A stretch of DNA of 64,000 bases from Oscillospiraceae bacterium. Lineage in GTDB: Bacteria > Bacillota > Clostridia > Oscillospirales > QAMX01. The position numbers were made by a program, and so were the translations under genes. Position 1 is the stretch's first letter. Each line of letters begins with the position of its first letter. The stretch lies in assembly GCA_015068345.1 (NCBI GenBank), contig SVKS01000001.1:3712-67711 (forward strand), given 5' to 3'. The notes under the pieces were generated by a model. That model worked only from the letters and a program-made list of their open reading frames with translations, was not told the origin of the DNA and did no database searches. Positions 13,313 to 32,707 of this stretch are shown piece after piece.

Positions 13313-14227
13313 ATGCAGATGAAAGAAGTAACGATCCTGCCCCGTGCGTTATCCCTTTTGCTGAAGGAAACCAATGGAGATGCTATCCGCTTGTATCTCT
13401 ACTATCTTTCCAAGGGGGAAACGGAAGCAGAAGGTGCCATGCACAGTTTGAACCTTACCCGGGAAGGATATGCAGCGGCTTATGCCGAGTTGATGTCCCT
13501 GGAGCTCCTGCCAAAGGAAAAACGAGTGCTGGATGAAGCCCCCGCCAGCTATACCAGGGAAGAGATTGCCAGAATTACCCGGGAAGATCCTGAATTCCAC
13601 GAATTGGTGCTCTTTTCCGAACGCCGATTGGGGCATATGGCCAGTGTCAGCGAAGTGCAGACCCTGTTGAATATTTATCATTGGCAGGGATTACCCTGTA
13701 GTGTGATCATGCTTTTGGTGGGGTACTGTGCCGATCAGGCGGTGAAGCAGAATCGTCGGCTAACCATGGGCTCCATTCGCAGTACCGCCAATAAGTGGAT
13801 CAATCAGAACATTGATACACCGGATAAGGCAGACCAATATCTTCGTGTCCTGGAAAATCAGTCCCATTATCTGGAACAGGTAACACGAATGCTACACATC
13901 ACAGCGGTGACCCCATCGGTGGATGCATACATACGGGAGTGGGCGGATAAAAAAATGGATATTGCCCTGGTGGAGCGGGCGGCGGATATTTCCGCTATGC
14001 GGTTTGGCTCTATCAATATCCGTTATATGAATGGGATTCTCCGAGGCTGGTTTGAAAAGGGCTATTTCACCCTGGAAGCAGTGGAGGCCAACGAAGGCAA
14101 GCGGGACCCGGCACCGGCCTTCCGGCCCAAAAGGGAGCAATCGGCAGCCCCGTCCCAAGGGGAAACCGATGCCATTCGCAAAGCCCGGGAGTTTTACGAA
14201 AAAAAGCAACGGGAGCAGCAGAAGTAA
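13313..14227 (+). CDS. DnaD-domain replication initiation/restart protein (Bacillus DnaB-like helicase-loader partner)
   Basis: Two DnaD/DnaB_2-type C-terminal repeats (...LLNIYHWQGLP...ANKWINQNI... and ...AADISAMRF...YMNGILRGWFEKG). It directly precedes a dnaI-like gene, as in the B. subtilis dnaB-dnaI pair. The start may be the second ATG (13319). Confidence 0.65.
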   Translation: MQMKEVTILPRALSLLLKETNGDAIRLYLYYLSKGETEAEGAMHSLNLTREGYAAAYAELMSLELLPKEKRVLDEAPASYTREEIARITREDPEFHELVLFSERRLGHMASVSEVQTLLNIYHWQGLPCSVIMLLVGYCADQAVKQNRRLTMGSIRSTANKWINQNIDTPDKADQYLRVLENQSHYLEQVTRMLHITAVTPSVDAYIREWADKKMDIALVERAADISAMRFGSINIRYMNGILRGWFEKGYFTLEAVEANEGKRDPAPAFRPKREQSAAPSQGETDAIRKAREFYEKKQREQQK

Positions 14228-14248
14228 AAGCAACAGGAGGCGACAGTT

Positions 14249-15220
14249 ATGGCACATCATCCCGAAATTATACGGGAGGCCCGAGAACAGTACCGGGAAG
14301 CGGTTCGGGTCTTTAACGAAAAAGAAGAAGCGAAAAAGAAAAGCCTCCTGGAACAGTCTCCCAGATTACAGGAGACAGCGGCAGAACTGGATCGTCTTTC
14401 TCTTCGTATGGCTCATGCGGCACTGATGGGATTACCGACGGAAATTCCCAAGATTCGGCAGCAAGCGGAGGAAATCCATCAGAAACAGGGGGACATTCTG
14501 GAGGAAATGGGGGAAATCCGGGATGCCCTGCGCCCTCACTATATGTGTCCCCTTTGTGAAGATTCCGGCAGTACCGGCAAGGGGAACTGCAGCTGTCTGA
14601 TGTCGGTTTACACGGAACGCATGTTGAAACGTTATCAAATGTACCTGGGGAATGCGGAACTGGGAAATCTGCAGATGGACCTTTTTTCCACCGCATTTGG
14701 TGCGAACGGCGTGTCTCCCCGCATACTGATTGATTACGCAGCAGATATTTGTAGGCGCTATGCCGAGGAGTTTTGCGAAGGACAAGCCGGTGGTTTGTTT
14801 ATCTATGGTGCTTGTGGTGTTGGCAAAAGCTTTTTGGCAGCGGGAACGGTCAGAAGAATCATCGAGCGGGGGTATTACGTCCATTGCATATCGGCAACGG
14901 AGCTCTTTTCTATTTATGAACGCTCTCGTTTTGGACGGTGTGAAGCGTCGGAAAAAGCCATGCTGGATGCCTGCTTTGAAGCGGATCTTCTTTTCCTGGA
15001 TGATTTGGGAAGCGAAGTGGCCTCTGCACACAATGCACCCTTCCTGGCCCGCCTGCTGAACGAGCGCATCAACCGGCAAAAGGGGACGATCCTGGTGGCC
15101 CAATGTATGGATGCGGACGAGCTTGCCAGACGTTATTCCGCTCAAATCCGATCCCGGGTGAAGGGGTCCTTTACCGAAATGATGATATTGGGAAACGATC
15201 TTCGAAATACAGCAAAATAA
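14249..15220 (+). CDS. dnaI: helicase loader DnaI/DnaC-family AAA+ ATPase
   Basis: N-terminal Zn motif CPLCEDSGSTGKGNCSC, Walker A GACGVGKS, Walker B LLFLDDLG. AGGAGG RBS. Confidence 0.8.
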   Translation: MAHHPEIIREAREQYREAVRVFNEKEEAKKKSLLEQSPRLQETAAELDRLSLRMAHAALMGLPTEIPKIRQQAEEIHQKQGDILEEMGEIRDALRPHYMCPLCEDSGSTGKGNCSCLMSVYTERMLKRYQMYLGNAELGNLQMDLFSTAFGANGVSPRILIDYAADICRRYAEEFCEGQAGGLFIYGACGVGKSFLAAGTVRRIIERGYYVHCISATELFSIYERSRFGRCEASEKAMLDACFEADLLFLDDLGSEVASAHNAPFLARLLNERINRQKGTILVAQCMDADELARRYSAQIRSRVKGSFTEMMILGNDLRNTAK

Positions 15221-15229
15221 GAAAGCAAG

Positions 15230-15262
15230 ATCCACAGATGAGTCCTCAGCTGTGGATTTTTT
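15230..15262 (+). terminator. rho-independent terminator after dnaI
   Basis: ATCCACAG...CTGTGGAT stem with an inner TGAG/CTCA pairing, followed by TTTTTT. Confidence 0.75.
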
Positions 15263-15288
15263 GTTTGCAAAGAGCAGAATATATATGG

Positions 15289-15317
15289 TTGAATTTTGGG
15301 ACTTAATATATTATACT
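15289..15317 (+). promoter_or_regulatory. sigma-A-type promoter for the LytTR regulator operon
   Basis: TTGAAT (15289-94), 17 nt, TATACT (15312-17). Confidence 0.45.
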
Positions 15318-15355
15318 GTAAGAAAACCGGATACCAATGCGAAAGGGAGGGATGA

Positions 15356-16057
15356 TTGGTGAAATACAAAATTGCCGTTTGTGATGACAATGCAGCGGAC
15401 CGAAACTATATTTTGGATATGATAAATCGCTGGGCAAAAGTCGGCGAACGGGAGATCGTCCCGGATAGCTTTCCCTCTGCCGAAAGCTTTCTGTTTCATT
15501 ATGCGGAAAAGAGTGACTACGAGATTCTTCTTTTGGATATTGAAATGGGGGATATGGACGGCGTTACCCTGGCAAAGAAGATCCGGGAGAATAACGATAC
15601 TCTGCAGATCATTTTTGTCACCGGCTACTCTGACTACATCGCCGAGGGCTACGAGGTGGCTGCCCTCCATTACCTGATGAAGCCGGTGAAGGAGGAAAAG
15701 CTTTTTTCTGTGTTGGACCGGGCTGTAGAAAAGCTTGCGAGAAACGAAAAGGTTTTGCATTTTGAAGTGGGCGGTGATATGGTACGGGTACCAATCCACA
15801 AGCTCCGCTATGCGGAGGTATTCGGCAACTACGTGACAATCCATGCCGAAGGGGAAATCACGGTAAAAATGACCCTGGGAGATCTGGAAAAACAGCTTGA
15901 CGAACGGTTTTATCGGGTAGGACGCTCCGCCATTGTAAATCTGACCCAGGTCAGTCGGGTCACCAGAACCGAAATCAAACTCATGGATGGTACCGCCCTT
16001 CCCCTTCCGCGGGGGGCTTATAATAGTATCAATCGGGCCATCATCAATATGGAGTGA
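15356..16057 (+). CDS. LytTR/AlgR-family two-component response regulator
   Basis: Receiver domain (CDD...LLLDIEMGDMDG...FVTGY...HYLMKP) plus a C-terminal LytTR DNA-binding domain (...VPIHKLRYAEVFGNYVTIH...RSAIVNL). The start is TTG 15356 or GTG 15359, after AAGGGAGGG. Confidence 0.88.
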   Translation: MVKYKIAVCDDNAADRNYILDMINRWAKVGEREIVPDSFPSAESFLFHYAEKSDYEILLLDIEMGDMDGVTLAKKIRENNDTLQIIFVTGYSDYIAEGYEVAALHYLMKPVKEEKLFSVLDRAVEKLARNEKVLHFEVGGDMVRVPIHKLRYAEVFGNYVTIHAEGEITVKMTLGDLEKQLDERFYRVGRSAIVNLTQVSRVTRTEIKLMDGTALPLPRGAYNSINRAIINME

Positions 16058-16061
16058 TAAA

Positions 16062-16745
16062 ATGGGCTTTTTTTCCAAACGAATTGACAAAAAGATTGCC
16101 GACTACCAACGGGAACTGATCGAGACCCACTACCGGGAGGTGGACAATATGTACCGCCAGATCCGGGGATGGCGGCACGATTACCGAAACCATATCCAAA
16201 TCATGAAAGCCTACGCCGCCGCCGAAAATTGGGAGGCCATCAAACATCATCTGGATCTTTTGGATCAGGACCTGACCACCGTGGATACGGTGATCAAAAC
16301 CGGAAACCCCATGACCGATGCCATTCTCAATTCCAAGATATCCCTGGCAAAGGAACGGGGTATTGAGGTGGTGGCGGACGCCCATGTTCCCTTGAGACTG
16401 AAAACCTCCGAAATGGACTTATGTTGTATTATCGGGAACCTTTTTGATAACGCCATCGAAGCCAGCCTGAAGTTGCCGGAGGGGCAGCGGGTTATCCGGG
16501 TGTATATTGATATGCGAAATACCCAACTCTATATCTCCTTCACCAACTTTACAGCTGGAAAGAAGCTCCAAAAGGAAGGGAATATCTTTCGCAGTACCAA
16601 GGGGGAGGGGCACGGGTTTGGGCTTGTGCGCATCGACGCCATTGTGGAGCGGTTGGAGGGATACATCAGCCGCAACAGCGAAGATGGAGCCTTTACCACC
16701 GAAATATTGCTTCCCCAGGTGTGGGGATTGCAATTCATCCCCTAA
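16062..16745 (+). CDS. cytoplasmic (TM-less) GHKL histidine kinase, AgrC/LytS-type catalytic core
   Basis: H-box WRHDYRNHIQ, N-box IIGNLFDNAIEA, G-box GEGHGFGL. It is 227 aa, and the N-terminus MGFFSKRIDKKIADYQRELIETHYRE has no hydrophobic segment. The start is 4 nt after the RR stop. Confidence 0.8.
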   Translation: MGFFSKRIDKKIADYQRELIETHYREVDNMYRQIRGWRHDYRNHIQIMKAYAAAENWEAIKHHLDLLDQDLTTVDTVIKTGNPMTDAILNSKISLAKERGIEVVADAHVPLRLKTSEMDLCCIIGNLFDNAIEASLKLPEGQRVIRVYIDMRNTQLYISFTNFTAGKKLQKEGNIFRSTKGEGHGFGLVRIDAIVERLEGYISRNSEDGAFTTEILLPQVWGLQFIP

Positions 16746-16756
16746 AAACAACGATT

Positions 16757-16787
16757 CGTCCCCGAGTTTCACCGGGGACGATTTTTT
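16757..16787 (+). terminator. rho-independent terminator after the kinase gene
   Basis: CGTCCCCG-N8-CGGGGACG followed by ATTTTTT. Confidence 0.7.
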
Positions 16788-16823
16788 GTGATAGGATAGA
16801 CGCAGAAAGGAAGGTGATCCTTC

Positions 16824-18659
16824 GTGGCAAGGAAAAAAGAAACGTCAGCCATGCCAAAATACAACGTGGCGCAAAATGTGGGGTTTATGGTGAAGCTGGC
16901 ATGGACCACCGGGGAAAAGAAAATTCTTGCCCTGGGTCTACTTTCGGCGTTACTTGCTGTGGGGCTTAATCTGATCCAGCTGTATCTTTCTCCTACCATT
17001 CTCTCGGTGGTGGAGCGACGGGCGTCGGCTATGGAGCTGGTTTGGACCATTTTGGGGTTTGTCCTGGCTCTCATGCTGGTATCGGCCATTTCGGCTTACG
17101 TGGATACCAATGCGCTGTTTGGCAGGGTCAGCCTTCGCTCGGAGATTACAAGCAATTTGAATCTCAAGGCGGCGACGACCGCTTACCCGAATGTGGACAA
17201 CGAGCGGTTCATGAAGCTTTTGACCAAAGCGCAGATGTGTGTTGGGTCCAACAGCGCAGCCACCGAAGCCGTGTGGCTTACCTTGACAGGTTTGTCCACC
17301 AACCTGATCGGATTTGGTATTTACGTAAGTCTTTTGAGTACTGTGCAACCACTTTTGATTTTGGTCATATTGGTAACGACAATAGGCGGCTATTTTGTCA
17401 GCAATTATGCCAATGGGTACGGGTATCGTCACCGGGAAGAGGAAGCGGAGTATGAAATGCAAATGCTGTACCTGGACTACCGGGCAAAGGAAACGGCTAC
17501 TGCCAAGGATATCCGCATTTTTGGTCTGCAACCCTGGATCAACGATCTTTATGGCAAGGCGGCAGGGGCTTACAGGGCATTTCAGGATAAATACCAAGGG
17601 GTTCTTCTTTGGGCGAAGTTGGTTGATCTTGTGCTTGCCTTTTTGCGCAATGGGGTGGCATACGCTTATCTGATCGGTATGGTCCTTCGGGGTGGCATTG
17701 ATATTTCATCATTTTTGTTGCTTTTCAATGCAGTCGGCGGCTTTTCGGCGTGGGTAACCGGTATTTTAGAAGGATTTACCACCCTTCATAAGCAATCCCT
17801 GGACATTGCCGTTGTCCGGGAATGCCTGGATTTTCCGGAACCGTTTTTGTTTGAAAAAGGGGAAACGATCAAGGCAGAACCAGGGCGAAGCTATGAGATT
17901 CGCATGGAAAACCTGTCCTTTCGCTATCCCGGTGCCGAGGAGGATACCCTCACCAATATTGACCTTACCCTGCATCCCGGGGAAAAGCTGGCGGTGGTGG
18001 GCTTGAATGGGGCAGGGAAGACGACCCTTATCAAGCTTCTATGTGGGTTTCTGGATCCCACCGAGGGGCGGGTTCTTCTGGATGGGAAGGATATCCGGGA
18101 ATATAACCGACGGGATTATTACGCCATGTTTTCGGCGGTGTTCCAGAATTTTTCCCTCCTTGCCGGTAGTGTTGCCGCCAACGTGGCCCAGGATATGGAA
18201 ACGATTGATATGGACCGGGTGAAGGAATGCGTGGAAAAAGCCGGTCTTAGAGAAACGATAGAGGCCCTAAAGGATGGTTACGAAACCAATCTGAACCGGG
18301 AGGTGTTTGAGGACGCCATTCTTCTTTCGGGTGGCGAAATGCAACGGCTGATGCTGGCGCGGGCGCTTTATAAGGAAACTCCCTTCGTCCTTCTGGATGA
18401 ACCCACCGCCGCTCTGGATCCCATTGCGGAATCGGAGATTTATCACAAATACCGCGAAATGACCGGCGGGAAATCCTCGGTCTACATCTCCCATCGGTTG
18501 GCAAGTACCCGCTTTTGCGACCGGATCATTCTGATTGCTGACGGCAGAATTGCCGAGGAGGGAACCCACGAAGAACTCATGAAGCTTGGTGGCAGATATG
18601 CCGAGTTTTATGAGGTGCAAAGTCAATACTATCAGGAGGAAGCCAAAGATGAAAAATAA
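16824..18659 (+). CDS. ABC exporter, fused permease/ATP-binding subunit (type I exporter)
   Basis: N-terminal 6-TM domain. NBD has GLNGAGKTT (Walker A), LSGGEMQR (signature) and VLLDEPTAALD (Walker B). The start is GTG 16824 (GGAAGG RBS) or ATG 16851. Confidence 0.88.
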   Translation: MARKKETSAMPKYNVAQNVGFMVKLAWTTGEKKILALGLLSALLAVGLNLIQLYLSPTILSVVERRASAMELVWTILGFVLALMLVSAISAYVDTNALFGRVSLRSEITSNLNLKAATTAYPNVDNERFMKLLTKAQMCVGSNSAATEAVWLTLTGLSTNLIGFGIYVSLLSTVQPLLILVILVTTIGGYFVSNYANGYGYRHREEEAEYEMQMLYLDYRAKETATAKDIRIFGLQPWINDLYGKAAGAYRAFQDKYQGVLLWAKLVDLVLAFLRNGVAYAYLIGMVLRGGIDISSFLLLFNAVGGFSAWVTGILEGFTTLHKQSLDIAVVRECLDFPEPFLFEKGETIKAEPGRSYEIRMENLSFRYPGAEEDTLTNIDLTLHPGEKLAVVGLNGAGKTTLIKLLCGFLDPTEGRVLLDGKDIREYNRRDYYAMFSAVFQNFSLLAGSVAANVAQDMETIDMDRVKECVEKAGLRETIEALKDGYETNLNREVFEDAILLSGGEMQRLMLARALYKETPFVLLDEPTAALDPIAESEIYHKYREMTGGKSSVYISHRLASTRFCDRIILIADGRIAEEGTHEELMKLGGRYAEFYEVQSQYYQEEAKDEK

Positions 18660-20520
18660 AAAACAAGCTTCCTGGAAAACGGTTTTTCGCATGAATCACC
18701 GGGCTTTGACCGTTTTTTATAGGCGCTATCCCGGGGCTGTCATATCCCGGTTTTGTAGTGTGATTTGGAATTCGCTTACCCCTTACGTCGGAATCTACCT
18801 GTCGGCGCTGGTGATTGAAGAGCTTGCGGGAGAGAGGAATGCGGCGCGTTTACAAATGCTTGTACTGGTCAATCTCCTTGCCGCGGCGGTCGTCGCTCTG
18901 GGAAGTGCGTTTTTTGAAAAATGGAAGGGAACTCAGAATGCGGGAATCATGCTGAAAATGGAACACATTTGCGCCGAAAAACTTTTTGGCATGGACTATG
19001 TGGACGTGGACTCCACCCAAACGGCAGAATATCTTTCGGCCATCCGTCAAAATTATAGTGTCGGGTGGGGGCTATACCGGGTAATTTTGGGTTATGAGGA
19101 ATTGTGTTCCGCATTGTTTACCCTGCTTGGCGGTATCTCTTTGACCATCACGCTGTTTACCAGCCGGGTACCCGAAACGGCGGGGACATATACCCTGCTG
19201 AATCATCCCATATTTGTGGTAATTATCATCGGCGTTATGCTTGCGATTACCTACCTGGCACCGGTTCTTGCGAATAAGGGGGAAAGATATTGGGCCATAA
19301 GTGCCGGGAATTTGCAATTGGCCAATCGATTGTTTGGCTTCTACGGATTTCGCGGCTATCAGCGGGAGATTGCCACCGATATGAGAATCTACCGACAGGA
19401 CCGGATCTGTGCCCTCTGTTTCCGGGAAAACAAGGCCAAAACGTTTGGCTCCAAAAGCCTGATGGCCAAGTATGGCAGAGGCCCCATGGGGCTCTATAAG
19501 GCAGGATCGGCGGCTGTTTCCATGATTTTTACAGGGGTTGTGTATGGTTTTGTCTGCCTAAAAGCCCTGGGCGGTGCATTTGGGCTTGGAGCAGTTACGC
19601 AGTATGTGGCATCTATCACAAAGGTTTCGGTGGGAGTAGCCAATATGGTTTCAGCATGGGGGAGTATGCAAAATAATACGGCGTTTTTGGAACCGGTTTT
19701 TGCTTTCCTAGATATTCCAAACAAAATGTACCAGGGTAGCCTTACGGTGGAAAAGCGCAGGGACAGGAAGTACCACGTGGAATTTCGCAATGTATCTTTC
19801 CGCTATCCCGGAAGCGATACCTACGCCCTCCGTAACGTCAATATGAAGTTTGAAATTGGCAAGCGCCTGGCGGTGGTTGGTATGAATGGGTCGGGGAAAA
19901 CCACCTTCATCAAGCTGCTTTGCCGCCTTTATGATCCCACCGAAGGGGAAATTCTCCTGAATGGGATCGATATCCGAAAATACAATTACCGGGAATATAT
20001 GGACATCTTCTCGGTGGTGTTTCAGGATTTTCGACTCTTGGGACTGAAGCTTGGGGAAAACGTGGCCTCCCGGGTGGATTACGACAGGGAGCGGGTTTTG
20101 GATTGCCTGGAAAAAGCAGGTTTTTCCGAACGGCTTGCTGAGCTTACGGATGGTATCGATACCTATCTGTATAAAGATTTTGCGGCGGATGGTGTGGACC
20201 TGTCGGGCGGTGAAGCCCAAAAGGTGGCCATTGCCCGGGCTCTTTATAAGGATGCCCCCTTCATCATCCTGGACGAACCCACTGCCGCCCTGGACCCCAT
20301 TGCAGAGGCTGAAATATACAGTAAGTTTGACGAGATCGCCGGGGATAAGACCGCAATCTATATCTCCCACCGACTCTCCTCTTGTAAATTCTGTGACGAA
20401 ATCGTAGTATTCCACGAAGGTGAAGTGATCCAACAGGGAACCCACGCCGCCCTCCTGGATGACACAAATGGGAAGTATTATGAGCTCTGGAACGCCCAGG
20501 CTCAATATTACACCGATTGA
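18649..20520 (+). CDS. ABC exporter, fused permease/ATP-binding subunit (partner of the preceding gene)
   Basis: GMNGSGKTT, LSGGEAQK, IILDEPTAALD. ATG 18649 follows AGGAGGA and overlaps the upstream stop by 11 nt. The ORF-track start at 18586 is rejected. Confidence 0.88.
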   Translation: MKNKKQASWKTVFRMNHRALTVFYRRYPGAVISRFCSVIWNSLTPYVGIYLSALVIEELAGERNAARLQMLVLVNLLAAAVVALGSAFFEKWKGTQNAGIMLKMEHICAEKLFGMDYVDVDSTQTAEYLSAIRQNYSVGWGLYRVILGYEELCSALFTLLGGISLTITLFTSRVPETAGTYTLLNHPIFVVIIIGVMLAITYLAPVLANKGERYWAISAGNLQLANRLFGFYGFRGYQREIATDMRIYRQDRICALCFRENKAKTFGSKSLMAKYGRGPMGLYKAGSAAVSMIFTGVVYGFVCLKALGGAFGLGAVTQYVASITKVSVGVANMVSAWGSMQNNTAFLEPVFAFLDIPNKMYQGSLTVEKRRDRKYHVEFRNVSFRYPGSDTYALRNVNMKFEIGKRLAVVGMNGSGKTTFIKLLCRLYDPTEGEILLNGIDIRKYNYREYMDIFSVVFQDFRLLGLKLGENVASRVDYDRERVLDCLEKAGFSERLAELTDGIDTYLYKDFAADGVDLSGGEAQKVAIARALYKDAPFIILDEPTAALDPIAEAEIYSKFDEIAGDKTAIYISHRLSSCKFCDEIVVFHEGEVIQQGTHAALLDDTNGKYYELWNAQAQYYTD

Positions 20521-20536
20521 TTTTCCACCAAAAAAC

Positions 20537-20572
20537 AAGCTCCCTGTCAACTCGACAGGGAGCTTACTTTTT
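20537..20572. terminator. bidirectional rho-independent terminator
   Basis: AAGCTCCCTGTC-AACTC-GACAGGGAGCTT (12-bp stem) with an A-run upstream and a T-run downstream, between convergent genes. Confidence 0.8.
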
Positions 20573-20588: not shown

Positions 20589-22079
20589 TTACAGATTCTT
20601 TCTCTTCACCCAAACCACAACGCTGCCAGCCAGCATGATGGCGGGAATGGCGATCAGAACGCCGAGAATGATCTGACGATCGGATTCCAGGGTGACAAGG
20701 GAGGATTCCGCAAAGAGCTTGTACTTGAATTGGGAAAGATCGTTGCCACCAAAGAAATCGCTCAGAACGATGGACATGAAGGTCCAGTTGGTGTAGGAGG
20801 AGCTGTTGAAGTAAACGTCACTGAGAGCATCCCCGGAGGAGAGCACCAGGAGCTTACCACTGGTGGTGTCGCCTTCCACTTCCACGGTGGGAGTTCTGGT
20901 GAGCAGGGTTGCAATGCCGAATGCACCGACTTCATCACCGGCTTCCTGGGTAACGTCCTGTACGCTGGTGGCCAGGTTAACCGGCTTGGTGAAGGAGGTA
21001 TCCATGGAGGTGAGCAGATCGGTACGGCTCCATGCGTTGGCACCGGCCATGTCGGTGTAGGTCATCTTCACACTGTTGGGGAAGATGAGCATGGTGTTCA
21101 TGCCGGACATGCTGGAAAGCACTTCGGAGGGAAGGGTTGCAGCCTTGATAGCTTCGGGATGGGCGGTGATACCGTTGGTGGTATCGTAGATGGCCTGATC
21201 GGTTACCGTAACGCCGAATTCCTTCAGGAAGTAGTTCAGGTTGGCGGTATCCTTGCTTTCGGTACCCAAGGAAACCATCATCTTACCAAGATCCTGGTTC
21301 AGGTAGGCATCGATAATGGCCAATTCGTCGGAGGAGTAGTCCTTTTCGGGCGCATTGATCACGATCAAGTCGGTATCCTCCGGCAGGGGTTCGGTGGCCA
21401 GGTTCACGTAGGAGACGTTGAAGTTGTTGGATTCCAGGAAGGCAACCAGCTTGCTGCCCTCGGTGCCGTCCTTGCCATTGTTTTCGCCCTTGCCATCCAG
21501 AAGAACGGCGTTGCGCTTACTGCCGGTGTCGCAGTAGTAAATGGCGGAAGCCAGAGCGTGTTCCAGATTCAAACCGACGGGAAGCTCTTCGCTGTAGCTG
21601 TCGGCGGCACGGAAATAGATGTAATCATAGTAAGTAAGCAGACGGTAAGCGGCGTCGCTCTTCACCAGGATGGAGTATTCGGTGATTTCACCGAGCTGGA
21701 AGCCCTGGGTGAAGGAGGGGTTGCGTTCAATGTCGATGTAATCTACCGAAATTTTGCCGCCCGAAAGCGTGGGGTAGCGGTCCAGGATAGAGGCGATGCT
21801 GGGACCGTAGATACCAAGCAGAAGGTTGGTGTCCACTACGTCGGCCCTGGGAGCCAACATGTAGATTTCGATGTTGTTTTCGACGTTTTTGAGCATTTCC
21901 ACGGTAGCATCGGAAATGTCATAACGACGGTCGGAGGTCATGTCGGCCTTCAGGTTGAACCGATCGGTCAGGGCGCTGGCCAGAATGTTCAAAAGGATTA
22001 CGGCGACGATGACCACGGCAGTGAAGGCCATGGCGGAGGCACCGTATTTGAATTTCTTGCTGAGTGTAAATTTTTTCAT
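20589..22079 (-). CDS. GldG-like auxiliary component of an ABC-2 transporter
   Basis: N-terminal and C-terminal TM anchors (AFTAVVIVAVILLNIL... / ...LGVLIAIPAIMLAGSVVVWV) flank a large extracytoplasmic domain. It lies downstream of an ABC-2 permease and ATPase. Family call by architecture and memory. Confidence 0.6.
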   Translation of the reverse strand: MKKFTLSKKFKYGASAMAFTAVVIVAVILLNILASALTDRFNLKADMTSDRRYDISDATVEMLKNVENNIEIYMLAPRADVVDTNLLLGIYGPSIASILDRYPTLSGGKISVDYIDIERNPSFTQGFQLGEITEYSILVKSDAAYRLLTYYDYIYFRAADSYSEELPVGLNLEHALASAIYYCDTGSKRNAVLLDGKGENNGKDGTEGSKLVAFLESNNFNVSYVNLATEPLPEDTDLIVINAPEKDYSSDELAIIDAYLNQDLGKMMVSLGTESKDTANLNYFLKEFGVTVTDQAIYDTTNGITAHPEAIKAATLPSEVLSSMSGMNTMLIFPNSVKMTYTDMAGANAWSRTDLLTSMDTSFTKPVNLATSVQDVTQEAGDEVGAFGIATLLTRTPTVEVEGDTTSGKLLVLSSGDALSDVYFNSSSYTNWTFMSIVLSDFFGGNDLSQFKYKLFAESSLVTLESDRQIILGVLIAIPAIMLAGSVVVWVKRKNL

Positions 22080-22094
22080 GTTCTACCTCCCCAA

Positions 22095-22802
22095 TCAGCT
22101 GTAACGCTTCTTTTCAAGCACGCGCGATGCCAGGAAGAGGAAGAGCGCGGCGGCGCTGATGTAATAAACGAAGTCACCCAGGCTGAACTGACCAACTGCG
22201 AAGCCCTGGAAGCGCATAAAGGGGGACAGATTGTTGGCAAGAGTTTCGATGAAGGGAGTAGCGGTCAGGGAAGCCAGGTCATCCAGATAAATCAGGGCGA
22301 TAAAAACACCCCAGTTGGCAATGATGGAGACCAAAAGGTTTTCAGTCAGGGAAGAAATGAACAGAGCGATGGACAGGAAGGCGGAGGAGGCGGCAATCAG
22401 AGCAATGTAGTTGCCAAACAGAGTCCAACCCTGCAGTTCACCAAACATCATGATGATAACCGGAATGGCAAAGCTCATGACAATGGTGATCAGAATGGCC
22501 ATCATACCCGCTAAAAACTTGCCCAACACAATGGAAATACAGCTGACAGGAGCAGTCAGGAGCAATTGATCGGTCTGCTGACGATACTCTTCGGTCATCA
22601 GACGCATGGTCAGGATGGGGATGGGCAGGAACAGCCAGTAGATGATGTTGCCCATAACCACCGAGATATCGGCGGTCTGAACCGAGTAGATGTTAAAAAT
22701 GTAGAAGAGAACGTAGATCAAAAGCAACAGAGTGCCGCTGAATACGTATCCCACGGGCGTTTTATAAAGCGCCTTAAAGTCTCTCTTAAAAATAGCAATC
22801 AA
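22095..22802 (-). CDS. ABC-2 type transporter permease
   Basis: 235 aa, about 6 hydrophobic helices, located between the ATPase and the GldG-like gene. Confidence 0.75.
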   Translation of the reverse strand: MIAIFKRDFKALYKTPVGYVFSGTLLLLIYVLFYIFNIYSVQTADISVVMGNIIYWLFLPIPILTMRLMTEEYRQQTDQLLLTAPVSCISIVLGKFLAGMMAILITIVMSFAIPVIIMMFGELQGWTLFGNYIALIAASSAFLSIALFISSLTENLLVSIIANWGVFIALIYLDDLASLTATPFIETLANNLSPFMRFQGFAVGQFSLGDFVYYISAAALFLFLASRVLEKKRYS

Positions 22803-22805
22803 GGC

Positions 22806-23891
22806 TTATTCCCCCTTCTTATTTTTCCGGGAGCTTACGCGATCCTGGGCTTTGGCTTCATCCGAAAGGGTGATGGACTTGTTGACGTCCTCTGCCATGG
22901 CCTTTTTGCGGCTCCTGCGGGCACGGGTGGCACGACCTTCGTCTTCCACCACGCGCTTGCCGGTGAGCTTGATGAAGATATCTTCCAGGGTGGCACCCAC
23001 CGGAGTGAGCTGCAGAACCGGAAGACCGGCCTTTTCCAGAGCCAGGAATACGTCTTTTCGTACGTCCTGATTCTCTTCCGAAACGATCAGGAAGTCGTTG
23101 GAGCCGATTTCCTTGCTGCCCTGGGGGGTAACGCTCTTCATGCCGGGGAGCTTACGCAGAATGCCCAAAACGATTTCGGGGTTGCCTGCCACGCGAACGT
23201 TGTAGCGGTGTTCGCTTTCAACGGTGCGGGAAAGGTTATCGGGGGTATCGCTGGCAATCAGCTGGCCCTTGTTGATAACCAATACACGGCCGCAAATCTG
23301 CTGAATTTCCGACAGAATATGGCTGGACAGAATGACGGTCCGCTTTTTGCCCAGGTCCTTGATCACGTTACGGATTTCGATGATCTGGATGGGGTCCAGA
23401 CCAACGGTGGGTTCGTCCAGAATCAGGACTTCGGGGTCGCCAACGAGTGCCTGAGCCAGGCCGACACGCTGCTTGTAACCCTTGGACAGGTTGCGGGTCA
23501 TGCGGTTGTAGACGTTGTCCAGACCGACGATCTCGCAGATGTTGCCGATGTGGCGGGCGCGTTCCTTGGGGGTGCCGCGGCAACCCTTCAGGTCGTAAAT
23601 GAAGTCAAGGTATTCCTTTACGGTCATGTCCATGTAAAGGGGCGGGTGTTCGGGCAGATAGCCAAGCTTTTTCTTGGCAAGGATCGGATCCTCCAAAATA
23701 TCGGTCCCGGCGATCTTCACGCTGCCGGAGGTGGCAGAAAGATACCCGGTAATGATGTTCATGGTGGTGGACTTGCCTGCACCGTTGGGCCCGAGGAAGC
23801 CAACGACCTCCCCTTCGTCAATGAAAAAGCTGATGTCGTTGACAGCTTTTTTGTCCCCGTAGTGCTTGACAAGATTGGTTACTTCAATCAT
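22806..23891 (-). CDS. ABC transporter ATP-binding protein with a basic C-terminal extension
   Basis: GPNGAGKST, LSKGYKQR, LILDEPTVGLD, SSH. It has a C-terminal Lys/Arg-rich tail of about 60 aa. Confidence 0.88.
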   Translation of the reverse strand: MIEVTNLVKHYGDKKAVNDISFFIDEGEVVGFLGPNGAGKSTTMNIITGYLSATSGSVKIAGTDILEDPILAKKKLGYLPEHPPLYMDMTVKEYLDFIYDLKGCRGTPKERARHIGNICEIVGLDNVYNRMTRNLSKGYKQRVGLAQALVGDPEVLILDEPTVGLDPIQIIEIRNVIKDLGKKRTVILSSHILSEIQQICGRVLVINKGQLIASDTPDNLSRTVESEHRYNVRVAGNPEIVLGILRKLPGMKSVTPQGSKEIGSNDFLIVSEENQDVRKDVFLALEKAGLPVLQLTPVGATLEDIFIKLTGKRVVEDEGRATRARRSRKKAMAEDVNKSITLSDEAKAQDRVSSRKNKKGE

Positions 23892-30123: not shown

Positions 30124-31683
30124 TTACCAGGTAAATGTGATGGGCTCTCCGTTCAGGAGGTACTTGGTTGGGGTAACCGATTCCATCCAATCCAGGGGAA
30201 TCAATTCGTCTGCCTGTCGGGAACCGGCCAGAAAGCCTTCCCGCAGGTCGGCAAGCTCGCTTTCCTTCAAAATACCTGGCTTGCAGGAAACGAACAGGCA
30301 GGAACCGCTTCGGGACAAAATCTTCAACCATTGAGCGTTCTTTTCCCAGGGAATCTGTCCGGTGATGCCCACGCAGTCAGCGTCCGCCCCGAAGAAGGCG
30401 TTGTTTTGCACCAGCCGGAAGGCCAGTGTATTGACCCCCATTTTCCGGGTACGGTCCCATTCCTTGCCGCTGGTGTCGTCTCCGGTGCGGTTAAAGTGAT
30501 GAATCCCGGCGCAAAGGTGACCAATGGCGTTACAACCAATGATGATGGTGTCCCCGGCGGCATCCCGGATGGTTTGGTAAAAGTCCTTGATGATCTGGGC
30601 GGTGGTGCGGGTGCGGTCGAAAAAGCCCCAATTCCCCTCCGCCGGGAAATCACCGAACTCAAAGCCCCACCTGCCGAAGATATCAAAGGTGGAATAGTCG
30701 TGTTTAATCAGGGTGTAACCCCACCCCACCAGGCGGCGGGTGGTTTCGGCCACGTACTCCAATACTCCGGGGTGGGAGGGATCCAGAACGAATTCGGAAC
30801 GCTGGGTGTACCACTCCTCCGGGAAGGTGTGGATGCGCCGCGCTCCTTCAAACCCGTTGATCAGGTAGCGTACCCAAATGCCGGGACGGACCCCAATCTC
30901 CCGCATTTCCTTCGCCAGGCGCTTCATATCGGGGAAGTTGGGCTTAGTCTGATCCCAGGGGGCATCCACGTTGTTTATCTGCCATCCGTCGTCAATGACC
31001 ATATAAGGGATGTTTTCGGCATCCCGGCACATTTCCTTGACAAAACGGCTGTCGGCCAGGATTTCTTCATGGGAGCTGACGCCGTAAGCGTAGTACCAGT
31101 TGTTGGAGCCGTAGACCACGTGATCGGCCAGCAGGGGAGTGGGAGACATCACCTGGCAGAAATCCTTCAGGGCGGAAAAGGCACTGCAGGCGGGGTATTC
31201 CTTCATATATACCGTGGCACAATCCAGGACCCGGTCCCCAAGCAGGGTGGGTTGGCACCCGTTACGAAGGTCCAGGATCAGGGTAACCCCATCCCCATCG
31301 CACTTCCACAGGGCCAGGGCGTTGGGCAGAACACCCACTCCGAAGCATTCGGTCAGTCGGTGGGAGGTGTCGGGGTCCCGATCGGATCCGTTGGAAATGG
31401 CCATGTACCAGGGCATTCCCCGGGTGGAATCCATGGGAAGCCACTGGAGGTCACCGTAGCCCCGCTCCCAGGCATCCCCCAAAACCTTCACGTCGGGACG
31501 CATGGGAATATTCCAACGCAGGGTAAGGAAAGAAACACCGGATTTTTCGCTTTTTAACCGGACGGTAAGTCCATCGGTTAACTCATAGGAGACATAACCG
31601 CCATCAAAGTTCAGATTCCCCGTCAGGCGGAGGTCCCCATCCGCCAGGGTCAGGGTGGTAATATCGGGATATCGAAGCTTCAT
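30124..31683 (-). CDS. glycoside hydrolase, clan GH-D (GH36/GH27-like alpha-galactosidase family)
   Basis: VIDDGWQ, LIKHDY (KxD nucleophile-type motif), NRTGDD. AAAGGAGG RBS. Confidence 0.6.
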   Translation of the reverse strand: MKLRYPDITTLTLADGDLRLTGNLNFDGGYVSYELTDGLTVRLKSEKSGVSFLTLRWNIPMRPDVKVLGDAWERGYGDLQWLPMDSTRGMPWYMAISNGSDRDPDTSHRLTECFGVGVLPNALALWKCDGDGVTLILDLRNGCQPTLLGDRVLDCATVYMKEYPACSAFSALKDFCQVMSPTPLLADHVVYGSNNWYYAYGVSSHEEILADSRFVKEMCRDAENIPYMVIDDGWQINNVDAPWDQTKPNFPDMKRLAKEMREIGVRPGIWVRYLINGFEGARRIHTFPEEWYTQRSEFVLDPSHPGVLEYVAETTRRLVGWGYTLIKHDYSTFDIFGRWGFEFGDFPAEGNWGFFDRTRTTAQIIKDFYQTIRDAAGDTIIIGCNAIGHLCAGIHHFNRTGDDTSGKEWDRTRKMGVNTLAFRLVQNNAFFGADADCVGITGQIPWEKNAQWLKILSRSGSCLFVSCKPGILKESELADLREGFLAGSRQADELIPLDWMESVTPTKYLLNGEPITFTW

Positions 31684-32633: not shown

Positions 32634-32707
32634 TGGCTGCCGAAGAAGGATTTGAACCCTCACAAACAGATCCAGAGTCTGTCGTGCTACCCTTACACAA
32701 TTCGGCA
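32634..32707 (-). tRNA. tRNA-Gln (anticodon CUG)
   Basis: Hand-folded cloverleaf, 74 nt with an encoded CCA. Acceptor stem UGCCGAA/UUCGGCA (U1:A72), discriminator G73, D-arm GUGU-AAGGGUA-GCAC. Anticodon arm ACAGA-CUCUGGA-UCUGU (anticodon CUG). T-arm GAGGG-UUCAAAU-CCUUC. Confidence 0.85.

Follow-up and report, generated by a model that had tools for sequence, protein, structure and literature searches.

Organization of the locus

A 5.3-kb block on contig SVKS01000001.1, from the metagenome-assembled genome of an Oscillospiraceae/Ruminococcaceae bacterium, was analysed within the 64-kb stretch of chromosomal DNA in which it lies (the window; coordinates are those of the whole window and refer to the + strand unless stated otherwise). 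The block contains four + strand genes that encode, in this order, a LytTR-family response regulator, a histidine kinase of the AgrC type with neither a sensor domain nor a transmembrane (TM) segment, and two ATP-binding cassette (ABC) exporter half-transporters, ABC1 and ABC2, each composed of a transmembrane domain (TMD) and a nucleotide-binding domain (NBD). The four genes together form a genuine module of gut Clostridia, strongly conserved but so far uncharacterised. Its NCBI product names are generic only ('GHKL domain-containing protein', 'response regulator transcription factor' and 'ABC transporter ATP-binding protein'). Every element of the block was found at the position given here (RBS, ribosome-binding site; aa, amino acids; nt, nucleotides):

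About 15229-15262, + strand: hairpin followed by a T-run (-17.5 kcal/mol, z -4.1), terminator of the upstream DnaC/IstB-like gene and left edge of the block
15289-15317, + strand: candidate sigma-70 promoter TTGAAT-17-TATACT for the regulator-kinase bicistron (consensus scan, 9/12 matches)
15356 (TTG) or 15359 (GTG)-16057, + strand: LytTR-family response regulator, 232-233 aa (Pfam Response_reg and LytTR)
16062-16745, + strand: sensor-less, TM-less AgrC-type (HPK10-like) histidine kinase, 227 aa (Pfam, structure relatives, hydropathy)
16733-16742, + strand: direct repeat 1 (ATTCATCCCC), distal LytTR-type box inside the 3' end of the kinase open reading frame (ORF) (motif search)
16754-16763, + strand: direct repeat 2 (ATTCGTCCCC), proximal LytTR-type box, doubling as the 5' arm of the internal hairpin (motif search)
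16756-16787, + strand: hairpin TCGTCCCCG-loop-CGGGGACGA followed by T6, predicted intrinsic terminator of the regulator-kinase transcript (-21.7 kcal/mol, z -4.5)
16789-16797, + strand: extended -10 TGATAGGAT of the predicted exporter promoter, no -35 match
16806-16817, + strand: RBS of ABC1, GAAAGGAAGGTG (read from the sequence)
16824-18659, + strand: ABC1, TMD-NBD half-transporter, 611 aa from GTG (Pfam ABC_tran)
18649-20520, + strand: ABC2, TMD-NBD half-transporter, 623 aa, overlapping ABC1 by 11 nt
20537-20572, + strand: 12-bp hairpin followed by a T-run (-23.3 kcal/mol, z -6.2), terminator of the exporter operon, common to the convergent gene ending at 20589

A preliminary description of this DNA had presented the block as one module between two strong terminators. 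The outer hairpins proved to be real, as judged from their RNA folds, but the internal terminator and the promoter next to it had been overlooked. Because a third, equally strong hairpin with a T-run lies inside the block, the latter is predicted from its sequence to consist of two transcription units rather than one, i.e. a regulator-kinase bicistron and a separate exporter operon. The same description had placed a LytTR regulator 4 nt in front of a kinase with H, N and G boxes and no hydrophobic segment, followed by two overlapping exporters with canonical catalytic sites, and these assignments were all confirmed by the domains, coordinates and motifs given below. No Rfam family matched anywhere within the block, its intergenic regions included.

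Regulator and kinase

The regulator (NCBI record MBE6998574.1, 'response regulator transcription factor') matched the Pfam families Response_reg (E 1e-16) and LytTR (E 3.5e-15), and the receiver residues D10, D11, D61, T89 and K109 were all present in its translation. The kinase starts 4 nt past the regulator stop. It matched HATPase_c_5 (E 2.3e-19), together with a SPOB_a-like match to the dimerization and histidine phosphotransfer (DHp) region that was below the family cut-off. Its boxes are H39 in WRHDYRNH, the N box GNLFDNAIEA and the G box GEGHGFGL. Across 23 relatives H39, N126, N130 and G185/G187 were invariant, and the catalytic motifs are all intact. As judged from the translations, the locus has the kinase His with its N and G boxes as well as the acidic pocket, Asp, Thr and Lys of the receiver, which would qualify it as a two-component system.

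No TM segment was detected in the kinase, the highest Kyte-Doolittle mean over 19 residues being 1.1, which is far below the level of a TM helix. A TM segment hidden by a mis-called start was considered and rejected: the in-frame extension to 15987 overlaps the regulator gene, adds 25 residues without a hydrophobic run of TM length and is unused by the homologues. The 38 residues that precede the His are all helical. An AlphaFold2 model of the kinase (predicted local distance difference test score, pLDDT, 72) contained a long helix (2-53) that bears H39, a second helix (57-74) and then the alpha/beta ATP-binding domain; it comprised the DHp and the catalytic and ATP-binding (CA) domain and nothing further. 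The best solved relative was the AgrC kinase module 6E52 (sequence E 6e-8; Foldseek E 8e-12). Along the length of the protein residues 1-15 were variable, residues 16-46 almost invariant and most of the catalytic domain conserved. The helix in front of the His (residues 16-37) was near-invariant on every face.

Most homologues of the kinase are 220 aa long. The seven additional C-terminal residues in the window are ascribed to the loss of the usual stop codon (TGG here), as a result of which the ORF reads through direct repeat 1. The tail encoded by 16725-16745 reads VWGLQFIP beyond the common 220-aa form. Similar extensions ending in ...LQFIP(RK) were seen at several other loci, where the regulator box is sometimes translated as a kinase tail.

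A Cys121-Cys122 pair was observed in the N-box helix (DLCCIIGNLFDNA, 16422-16427) and is kept in the close TM-less relatives; distant relatives mostly carry a single Cys (DLCVI...) at this place. It is possible, though speculative, that the pair is a redox-sensitive site.

The exporter pair

ABC1 and ABC2 both contain consensus Walker A, LSGGE, (L/I)LDEPT and ISHR motifs, read from their translations, so that the ATP sites of both exporters are of the consensus type (LLDEPT and ILDEPT). Two tandem TMD-NBD genes with Walker A and B, signature and H-loop motifs place the pair among the heterodimeric type IV (ABCB-like) ABC exporters. The NCBIfam MsbA model spans residues 54-600 of ABC1, below its cut-off, and six hydrophobic peaks were found in this protein. 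The GTG start of ABC1 is supported by its lysine-rich N-terminus, which is conserved in the homologues. Pfam Peptidase_C39 had no match in either protein. ABC_membrane did not match the exporter TMDs at E 0.01, these being too divergent. The best sequence matches in the PDB were ABCB1/ABCB4 and MsbA. An assignment of the substrate was attempted and abandoned, as the PDB and NCBIfam matches were generic (ABCB1, MsbA and similar) and all below the family cut-offs.

Conservation of the four-gene order

Relatives of the kinase were found to be encoded in at least 479 stretches of species-representative genomes, and their hosts included Lachnospiraceae, Oscillospiraceae, Ruminococcaceae, Acutalibacteraceae, Butyrivibrio, Blautia and Faecalibacterium. 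Comparisons between genome loci were made on the best 80 loci among these stretches, picked by kinase similarity. In a word-indexed protein search at least 8000 clusters matched the kinase; the best 120 of them were all 220-232 aa long with at least 83% identity, and a single homologue turned up on at least 1000 contigs. The order regulator-kinase-ABC1-ABC2 was present in essentially all of the best 80 loci that had enough flank. The adjacency of kinase and exporters, on which the preliminary description had made its idea of an exporter-derived input depend, is thus conserved.

The genes that flank the block in the window (DnaD-like, DnaC-like and the GldG-like operon) were not conserved at the 80 loci. 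When 2153 flank ORFs were clustered, no family occurred in more than 10 of about 78 loci, and the ORFs that are sometimes found between regulator and kinase were unrelated and soluble; a fifth conserved gene for a sensor, peptide or inhibitor was therefore rejected. AgrB/AgrD-like, peptide-precursor and C39 genes, reported before to be absent from the block, are indeed absent, the block having no ORF beyond its four genes, and do not recur in the flanks either. Among 72,556 plasmids no close homologue of the kinase was encountered, all matches having less than 33% identity. The possibility that the module is cargo of a mobile element was dismissed on this ground, together with the absence of a recurrent recombinase or relaxase in the flanks and the saturation of synonymous sites (see below). 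No published description of the four-gene cassette or of TM-less AgrC-type kinases was found in the searched literature, outside of which most subscription journals fall.

Some loci deviated from the common arrangement. The soluble ORFs between regulator and kinase (about 55-214 aa; L029 2206-2823, L052 7331-7972 and L059 2138-2311) had no mutual similarity and no hydrophobic segments. Two tandem exporter pairs stood behind one regulator-kinase pair in L054 (8990-16532) and L063 (9496-16660), with one repeat-pair promoter detected in each. In L058 (1-1686) a kinase homologue (84% identical) was seen without an adjacent regulator; the 3' end of an ABC2-like gene precedes it, as does a 28-codon ORF for a hydrophobic peptide (MVTYADLFTFVIMLCAVATLVIYAIRKK). 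This arrangement may be a rearranged cassette or a misassembly.

A predicted LytTR-type promoter with an embedded terminator

LytTR regulators such as AgrA, ComE and PlnC classically act at two direct repeats of about 9-12 bp, spaced with a period of about 21 bp, that precede a promoter whose -35 is weak or lacking. The search for such direct repeats that had been proposed in the preliminary description had a mixed outcome: a pair was found upstream of 16824, in front of the exporters, but none upstream of the regulator gene. The 10-mer ATTCRTCMCC matched five times in the window, against 1.0 expected, and exact matches at a spacing of 21 bp occurred only at 16733/16754. A second pair with this spacing on the - strand (30484-30525) consists of matches with one mismatch, lacks a hairpin or -10 nearby and is probably due to chance. 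The core of the repeat, CAnTTCA, presumably resembles the ComE-box consensus.

An alignment of the intergenic regions of related loci revealed a fixed design: repeat 1, repeat 2, hairpin with T-run, extended -10, RBS and ABC1 start. The consensus of repeat 1 across the loci was (G/A)C(A/G)ATTC(A/G)TC(A/C)CC, with repeat 2 lying 21 bp downstream. The repeat pair was found once per locus, with the 21-bp period and always just 3' of the kinase, in 71 of the 80 genome loci, and the extended -10 (TGnTAnnnT) in 64/72 loci at a fixed distance of 24-26 nt past the end of repeat 2. The exporter pair begins about 20 nt past the predicted transcription start. These repeats and the extended -10 without a -35 would make up a LytTR-type target promoter, to which binding of the regulator is predicted.

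The internal hairpin is placed between repeat 2 and the -10. A hairpin with a minimum free energy (MFE) of -10 kcal/mol or lower was present in 71/72 loci in the form of 66 distinct sequences, the median MFE of the intergenic hairpins in the 72 loci being -18.6, compared with -8.2 for shuffled sequence. L061 and L088 even rebuild the hairpin from unrelated sequence. As the hairpin occurs in nearly all loci with varied and sometimes unrelated sequence, it appears to be under selection itself, and not merely the repeat. The alternative that it is a third, inverted box for the regulator rather than a terminator is unlikely, because L061, L088, L012 and L025 rebuild the hairpin from other sequence and keep repeat 2.

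Upstream of the regulator the situation is different. No conserved motif preceded the RBS of the regulator across 74 loci, a direct-repeat pair was absent from this place in all of the 80 genome loci, and the candidate promoter at 15289-15317 is specific for this locus and lies outside the conserved cassette. The lack of conservation upstream of the regulator RBS suggests that the regulator-kinase pair uses local promoters and is not autoregulated through repeat boxes.

This bears on the question whether the module could be a peptide quorum-sensing system like Agr, Com or Blp, in which the exporters would release a signal peptide for detection by the kinase or following re-entry. Kinase and regulator do belong to AgrC/AgrA-type families, and one homologue carries the JGI label 'AgrC'. 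However, the regulator operon has no repeats and hence no autoinduction loop, the kinase has no extracellular or membrane part to which a peptide could bind, and neither a peptide precursor, AgrB/AgrD, a C39 domain nor a conserved small ORF was found. Quorum sensing of this kind is considered highly improbable.

Selection on the four genes

Median pairwise identities among 56 complete cassettes were 0.855 for the kinase, 0.720 for the regulator, 0.530 for ABC1 and 0.539 for ABC2. At four-fold degenerate sites the identity was 0.32-0.36 for all four genes, which amounts to saturation. This indicates that the constancy of the kinase is due to purifying selection and not to recent transfer; recent horizontal spread as the cause of its conservation was rejected on the same ground.

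The preliminary description had allowed that the kinase could be a decaying fragment. According to this explanation it would be the truncated remnant of a membrane kinase, the exporters being expressed independently, and there are indeed distant relatives of 326-464 aa with TM domains. A median identity of 85.5% with saturated synonymous sites and intact catalytic motifs argues that the protein is not in decay, as do the number of clusters that match it (more than 8000), their length, which is 220-227 aa for nearly all of the clusters listed, and the regulator-type promoter conserved upstream of the exporters. Purifying selection on the kinase is strong, and no other part of the module is as constrained; decay can be regarded as already refuted by this conservation and as almost certainly wrong.

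The exporters fell into at least four subgroups. Their TMDs had identities of 0.38-0.44 and their NBDs of 66% (ABC1) and 76% (ABC2), so that the ABC2 NBD, with a median of 0.76, is the best-conserved exporter region. Within and between the exporter subgroups the medians were 0.728 and 0.720 for the regulator and 0.859 and 0.850 for the kinase. The distances of kinase and regulator were correlated (Spearman 0.65), as were those of ABC1 and ABC2 (0.85).

Relatives of the kinase

Distant relatives were retrieved by a search of representatives clustered at 50% identity. At 35-47% identity the same core was found after one TM helix (230-281 aa) or several (283-464 aa); those at 38-47% identity bore 1 or 5-7 TM helices. 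The polytopic forms mostly had 4-7 hydrophobic peaks, and some further TM-less forms were also present. In a rough neighbour-joining tree the TM-less group of the window was one coherent clade beside single-TM and polytopic clades. Isolated TM-less forms within the single-TM clades of this tree suggest that the sensor was lost repeatedly.

One 404-aa relative (P0159, in L098), with about 6 TM helices by eye and 7 hydrophobic peaks, was encoded in the same four-gene order, with the same two repeats, hairpin and -10 design between kinase and exporter. The same promoter design preceded ABC-like genes in L091 (polytopic kinase) and in L094 and L097 (TM-less kinases). As the TM-bearing relatives in L098 and L091 share gene order or promoter design with the window, it is concluded that the module type is older than the loss of the sensor and that the clade of the window is its sensor-less derivative. 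A K+ channel-type gene (Ion_trans, TrkA_C), in place of ABC exporters, stands behind a single-TM relative with 46% identity in L095 (910-1773) and L096 (2008-2646). From this adjacency it seems that the wider kinase family controls other membrane transport genes too.

Since relatives fuse 1 to 7 TM helices to the same core, the ancestral TM domain might have become a gene of its own elsewhere in the genome; the kinase would then be one half of a split receptor and would depend for its signal on a separate membrane sensor or accessory protein. The pre-His helix (16-37), near-invariant on all faces, looks as would be expected of a partner-binding surface. Nevertheless, no recurrent neighbour gene was found, the ORFs that occasionally occur between regulator and kinase are mutually unrelated and soluble, and the partner would need to be conserved across Lachnospiraceae and Oscillospiraceae, with nothing pointing to one. 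A separate sensor is regarded as quite unlikely.

Proposed wiring and signal input

The anatomy and conservation of kinase, regulator, repeats and exporter promoter give good support to a wiring from the regulator to the exporters. The regulator-kinase bicistron would be transcribed from whatever local promoter precedes it, and its transcript would end at the terminator at 16756-16787. By comparison with known two-component and LytTR systems, the kinase would phosphorylate D61 of the regulator, which in its phosphorylated form would bind both repeats and recruit RNA polymerase. Exporter expression would be strictly dependent on regulator phosphorylation, the terminator stopping read-through from upstream.

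The least certain step is the input. The kinase probably does not recognise the exported substrate, because it has no sensor or partner gene and is near-invariant while the membrane domains of the exporters diverge. A kinase without any regulated role is argued against by a constraint that is stronger than that on any other part of the module. The reading that is tentatively preferred is transporter-coupled sensing by the soluble kinase: it would read the state or activity of the exporters from the cytoplasmic side, as a soluble counterpart of Bce-type sensing, which would match pump synthesis to demand.

For AgrC it was described that the activity is governed by the twist that the sensor gives to helix alpha-1 and that an Arg beside the His is part of the off-state latch (PMC6755735). 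The equivalent Arg of the present kinase, R38, is conserved and the N-terminus of the helix is free; a partner is therefore expected to act on segment 16-37. In a more specific form of the proposal the kinase would follow a type IV exporter through its catalytic or conformational cycle, the candidate contact being that of the ABC2 NBD with the pre-His helix, and one invariant kinase-regulator pair would serve several exporter subfamilies. This form is offered as a doubtful possibility.

Several observations weigh against transporter-coupled sensing. With residues 1-15 variable, the N-terminal tip does not qualify as a conserved docking peptide. Kinase and exporters showed no co-variation at the kinase-selected loci, either by Spearman correlation (0.08-0.19) or in the subgroup comparison, although this test is weakened by the choice of loci on kinase similarity, which narrows the variation of the kinase. 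The K+ channel gene behind the relatives in L095 and L096 indicates that members of the wider kinase family need not be linked to ABC exporters. The contact between kinase and exporter is one that we infer, the functions of terminator and promoter are themselves predictions, and a DHp-CA core on its own might just be active all the time.

The last point leads to an autonomous kinase, either constitutive or tuned by a cytoplasmic variable such as the ATP/ADP ratio, acetyl phosphate via the regulator or the redox state acting on Cys121-Cys122, so that the exporter level would be set by the state of the cell and not by transport demand. The protein consists of DHp and CA only, and its free N-terminal helix, compared with the twisted alpha-1 of AgrC (PMC6755735), carries no imposed input. 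Moreover, the kinase is unchanged whatever the exporter subgroup, and its close TM-less relatives are set apart by the Cys121-Cys122 pair. On the other hand, without a regulated input the two-component layer would be redundant, yet the kinase has kept about 85% identity in hundreds of species, and a general sensor of the cell state leaves the strict linkage to the exporters unexplained. Autonomy is therefore regarded as a possible but rather unlikely alternative to the transporter-coupled sensing that is preferred here.

Comparison with known systems

The kinase belongs to the same subfamily as those of AgrC-AgrA, ComD-ComE and BlpH-BlpR (HDYxNH H box, HATPase_c_5), the regulator to the same family (receiver and LytTR domain), and the predicted promoter follows the same logic, in which two repeats spaced by 21 bp precede a promoter that lacks a -35. 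In contrast to these systems, the locus has no polytopic (5-7 TM) peptide-binding sensor domain, no genes for a peptide precursor or its processing and no C39 domain on the ABC proteins; repeats before the regulator operon, and with them autoinduction, are missing, and the genes under control would be those of two plain TMD-NBD exporters.

In Bce-type systems (BceRS-BceAB) a kinase without a sensor domain of its own is likewise encoded beside the ABC transporter that it induces, induction being predicted in the present case. The logic of the transporter as sensor, i.e. flux sensing of antimicrobial peptides, was demonstrated for Bce and is a proposal here. BceS spans the membrane with two TM helices and is complexed there with the permease, whereas the present kinase is fully soluble; the Bce regulator is of the OmpR type and the present one is a LytTR protein; and BceAB consists of a separate ATPase and a 10-TM FtsX-type permease instead of two ABCB-like half-transporters. 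The locus thus has none of the three structural characteristics of the Bce type: a two-TM kinase, an OmpR-type regulator and a BceAB-type transporter.

Heterodimeric ABCB-like exporters (such as BmrCD, LmrCD, PatAB, TM287/288 and EfrCD) are also encoded by two adjacent, translationally coupled TMD-NBD genes, but the regulation known for them is by attenuation or one-component repressors and not by a two-component system as proposed here. Most of these pairs have one degenerate ATP site, whereas both sites of the present pair are consensus. In Bacillus subtilis, NatK-NatR-NatAB is a LytTR-family two-component system that controls an adjacent ABC exporter, as would be the case here; unlike the present proteins NatK is a membrane protein and NatAB an ABC-2-type ATPase with its permease. 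Systems of the HdrRM/BrsRM type combine a LytTR protein without a receiver with a membrane inhibitor, whereas in the present locus the receiver is there and the partner is a kinase. What appears to be new is the combination of an ABC exporter under predicted two-component control with a sensor-less soluble kinase of the AgrC type and a promoter with an embedded terminator.

Relatives of the module occur in at least 479 species-level genomes and comprise thousands of metagenomic variants from the dominant Clostridia of gut and rumen, annotated with generic names only. The module probably governs inducible export, for detoxification or secretion, in organisms with almost no known regulatory circuits. 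The kinase may be the smallest natural AgrC-type kinase, and for this reason would be a convenient system for studying the behaviour of a sensor-free core and ABC exporters as cytoplasmic co-sensors. The two boxes with the embedded terminator and the extended -10 could be a ready-made, apparently tightly insulated inducible part for Clostridia. If the transporter-coupled reading were true, cytoplasmic flux sensing would operate in hundreds of species of gut Clostridia, with one invariant kinase-regulator pair for exporter subfamilies of different substrates.

Neighbouring genes

The only Rfam match at the gathering threshold in the whole window was a single tRNA gene at 32637-32707 (- strand). 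Downstream of the block a convergent three-gene operon of the ABC-2 type (20589-23891, - strand; ATPase, ABC2 permease and a GldG/ABC_transp_aux-like protein) ends at the same hairpin as the exporter operon (20537-20565), which probably terminates both strands; this operon is not kept beside the cassette in other genomes. Directly upstream, 13313-15220 encodes a DnaB_2/DnaD-like protein and an IstB/DnaC-like AAA+ ATPase. In matching metagenome contigs this pair follows glyA, a femAB-like gene, alr and holB, and from this context it looks like a chromosomal helicase-loader pair and not like a mobile element.

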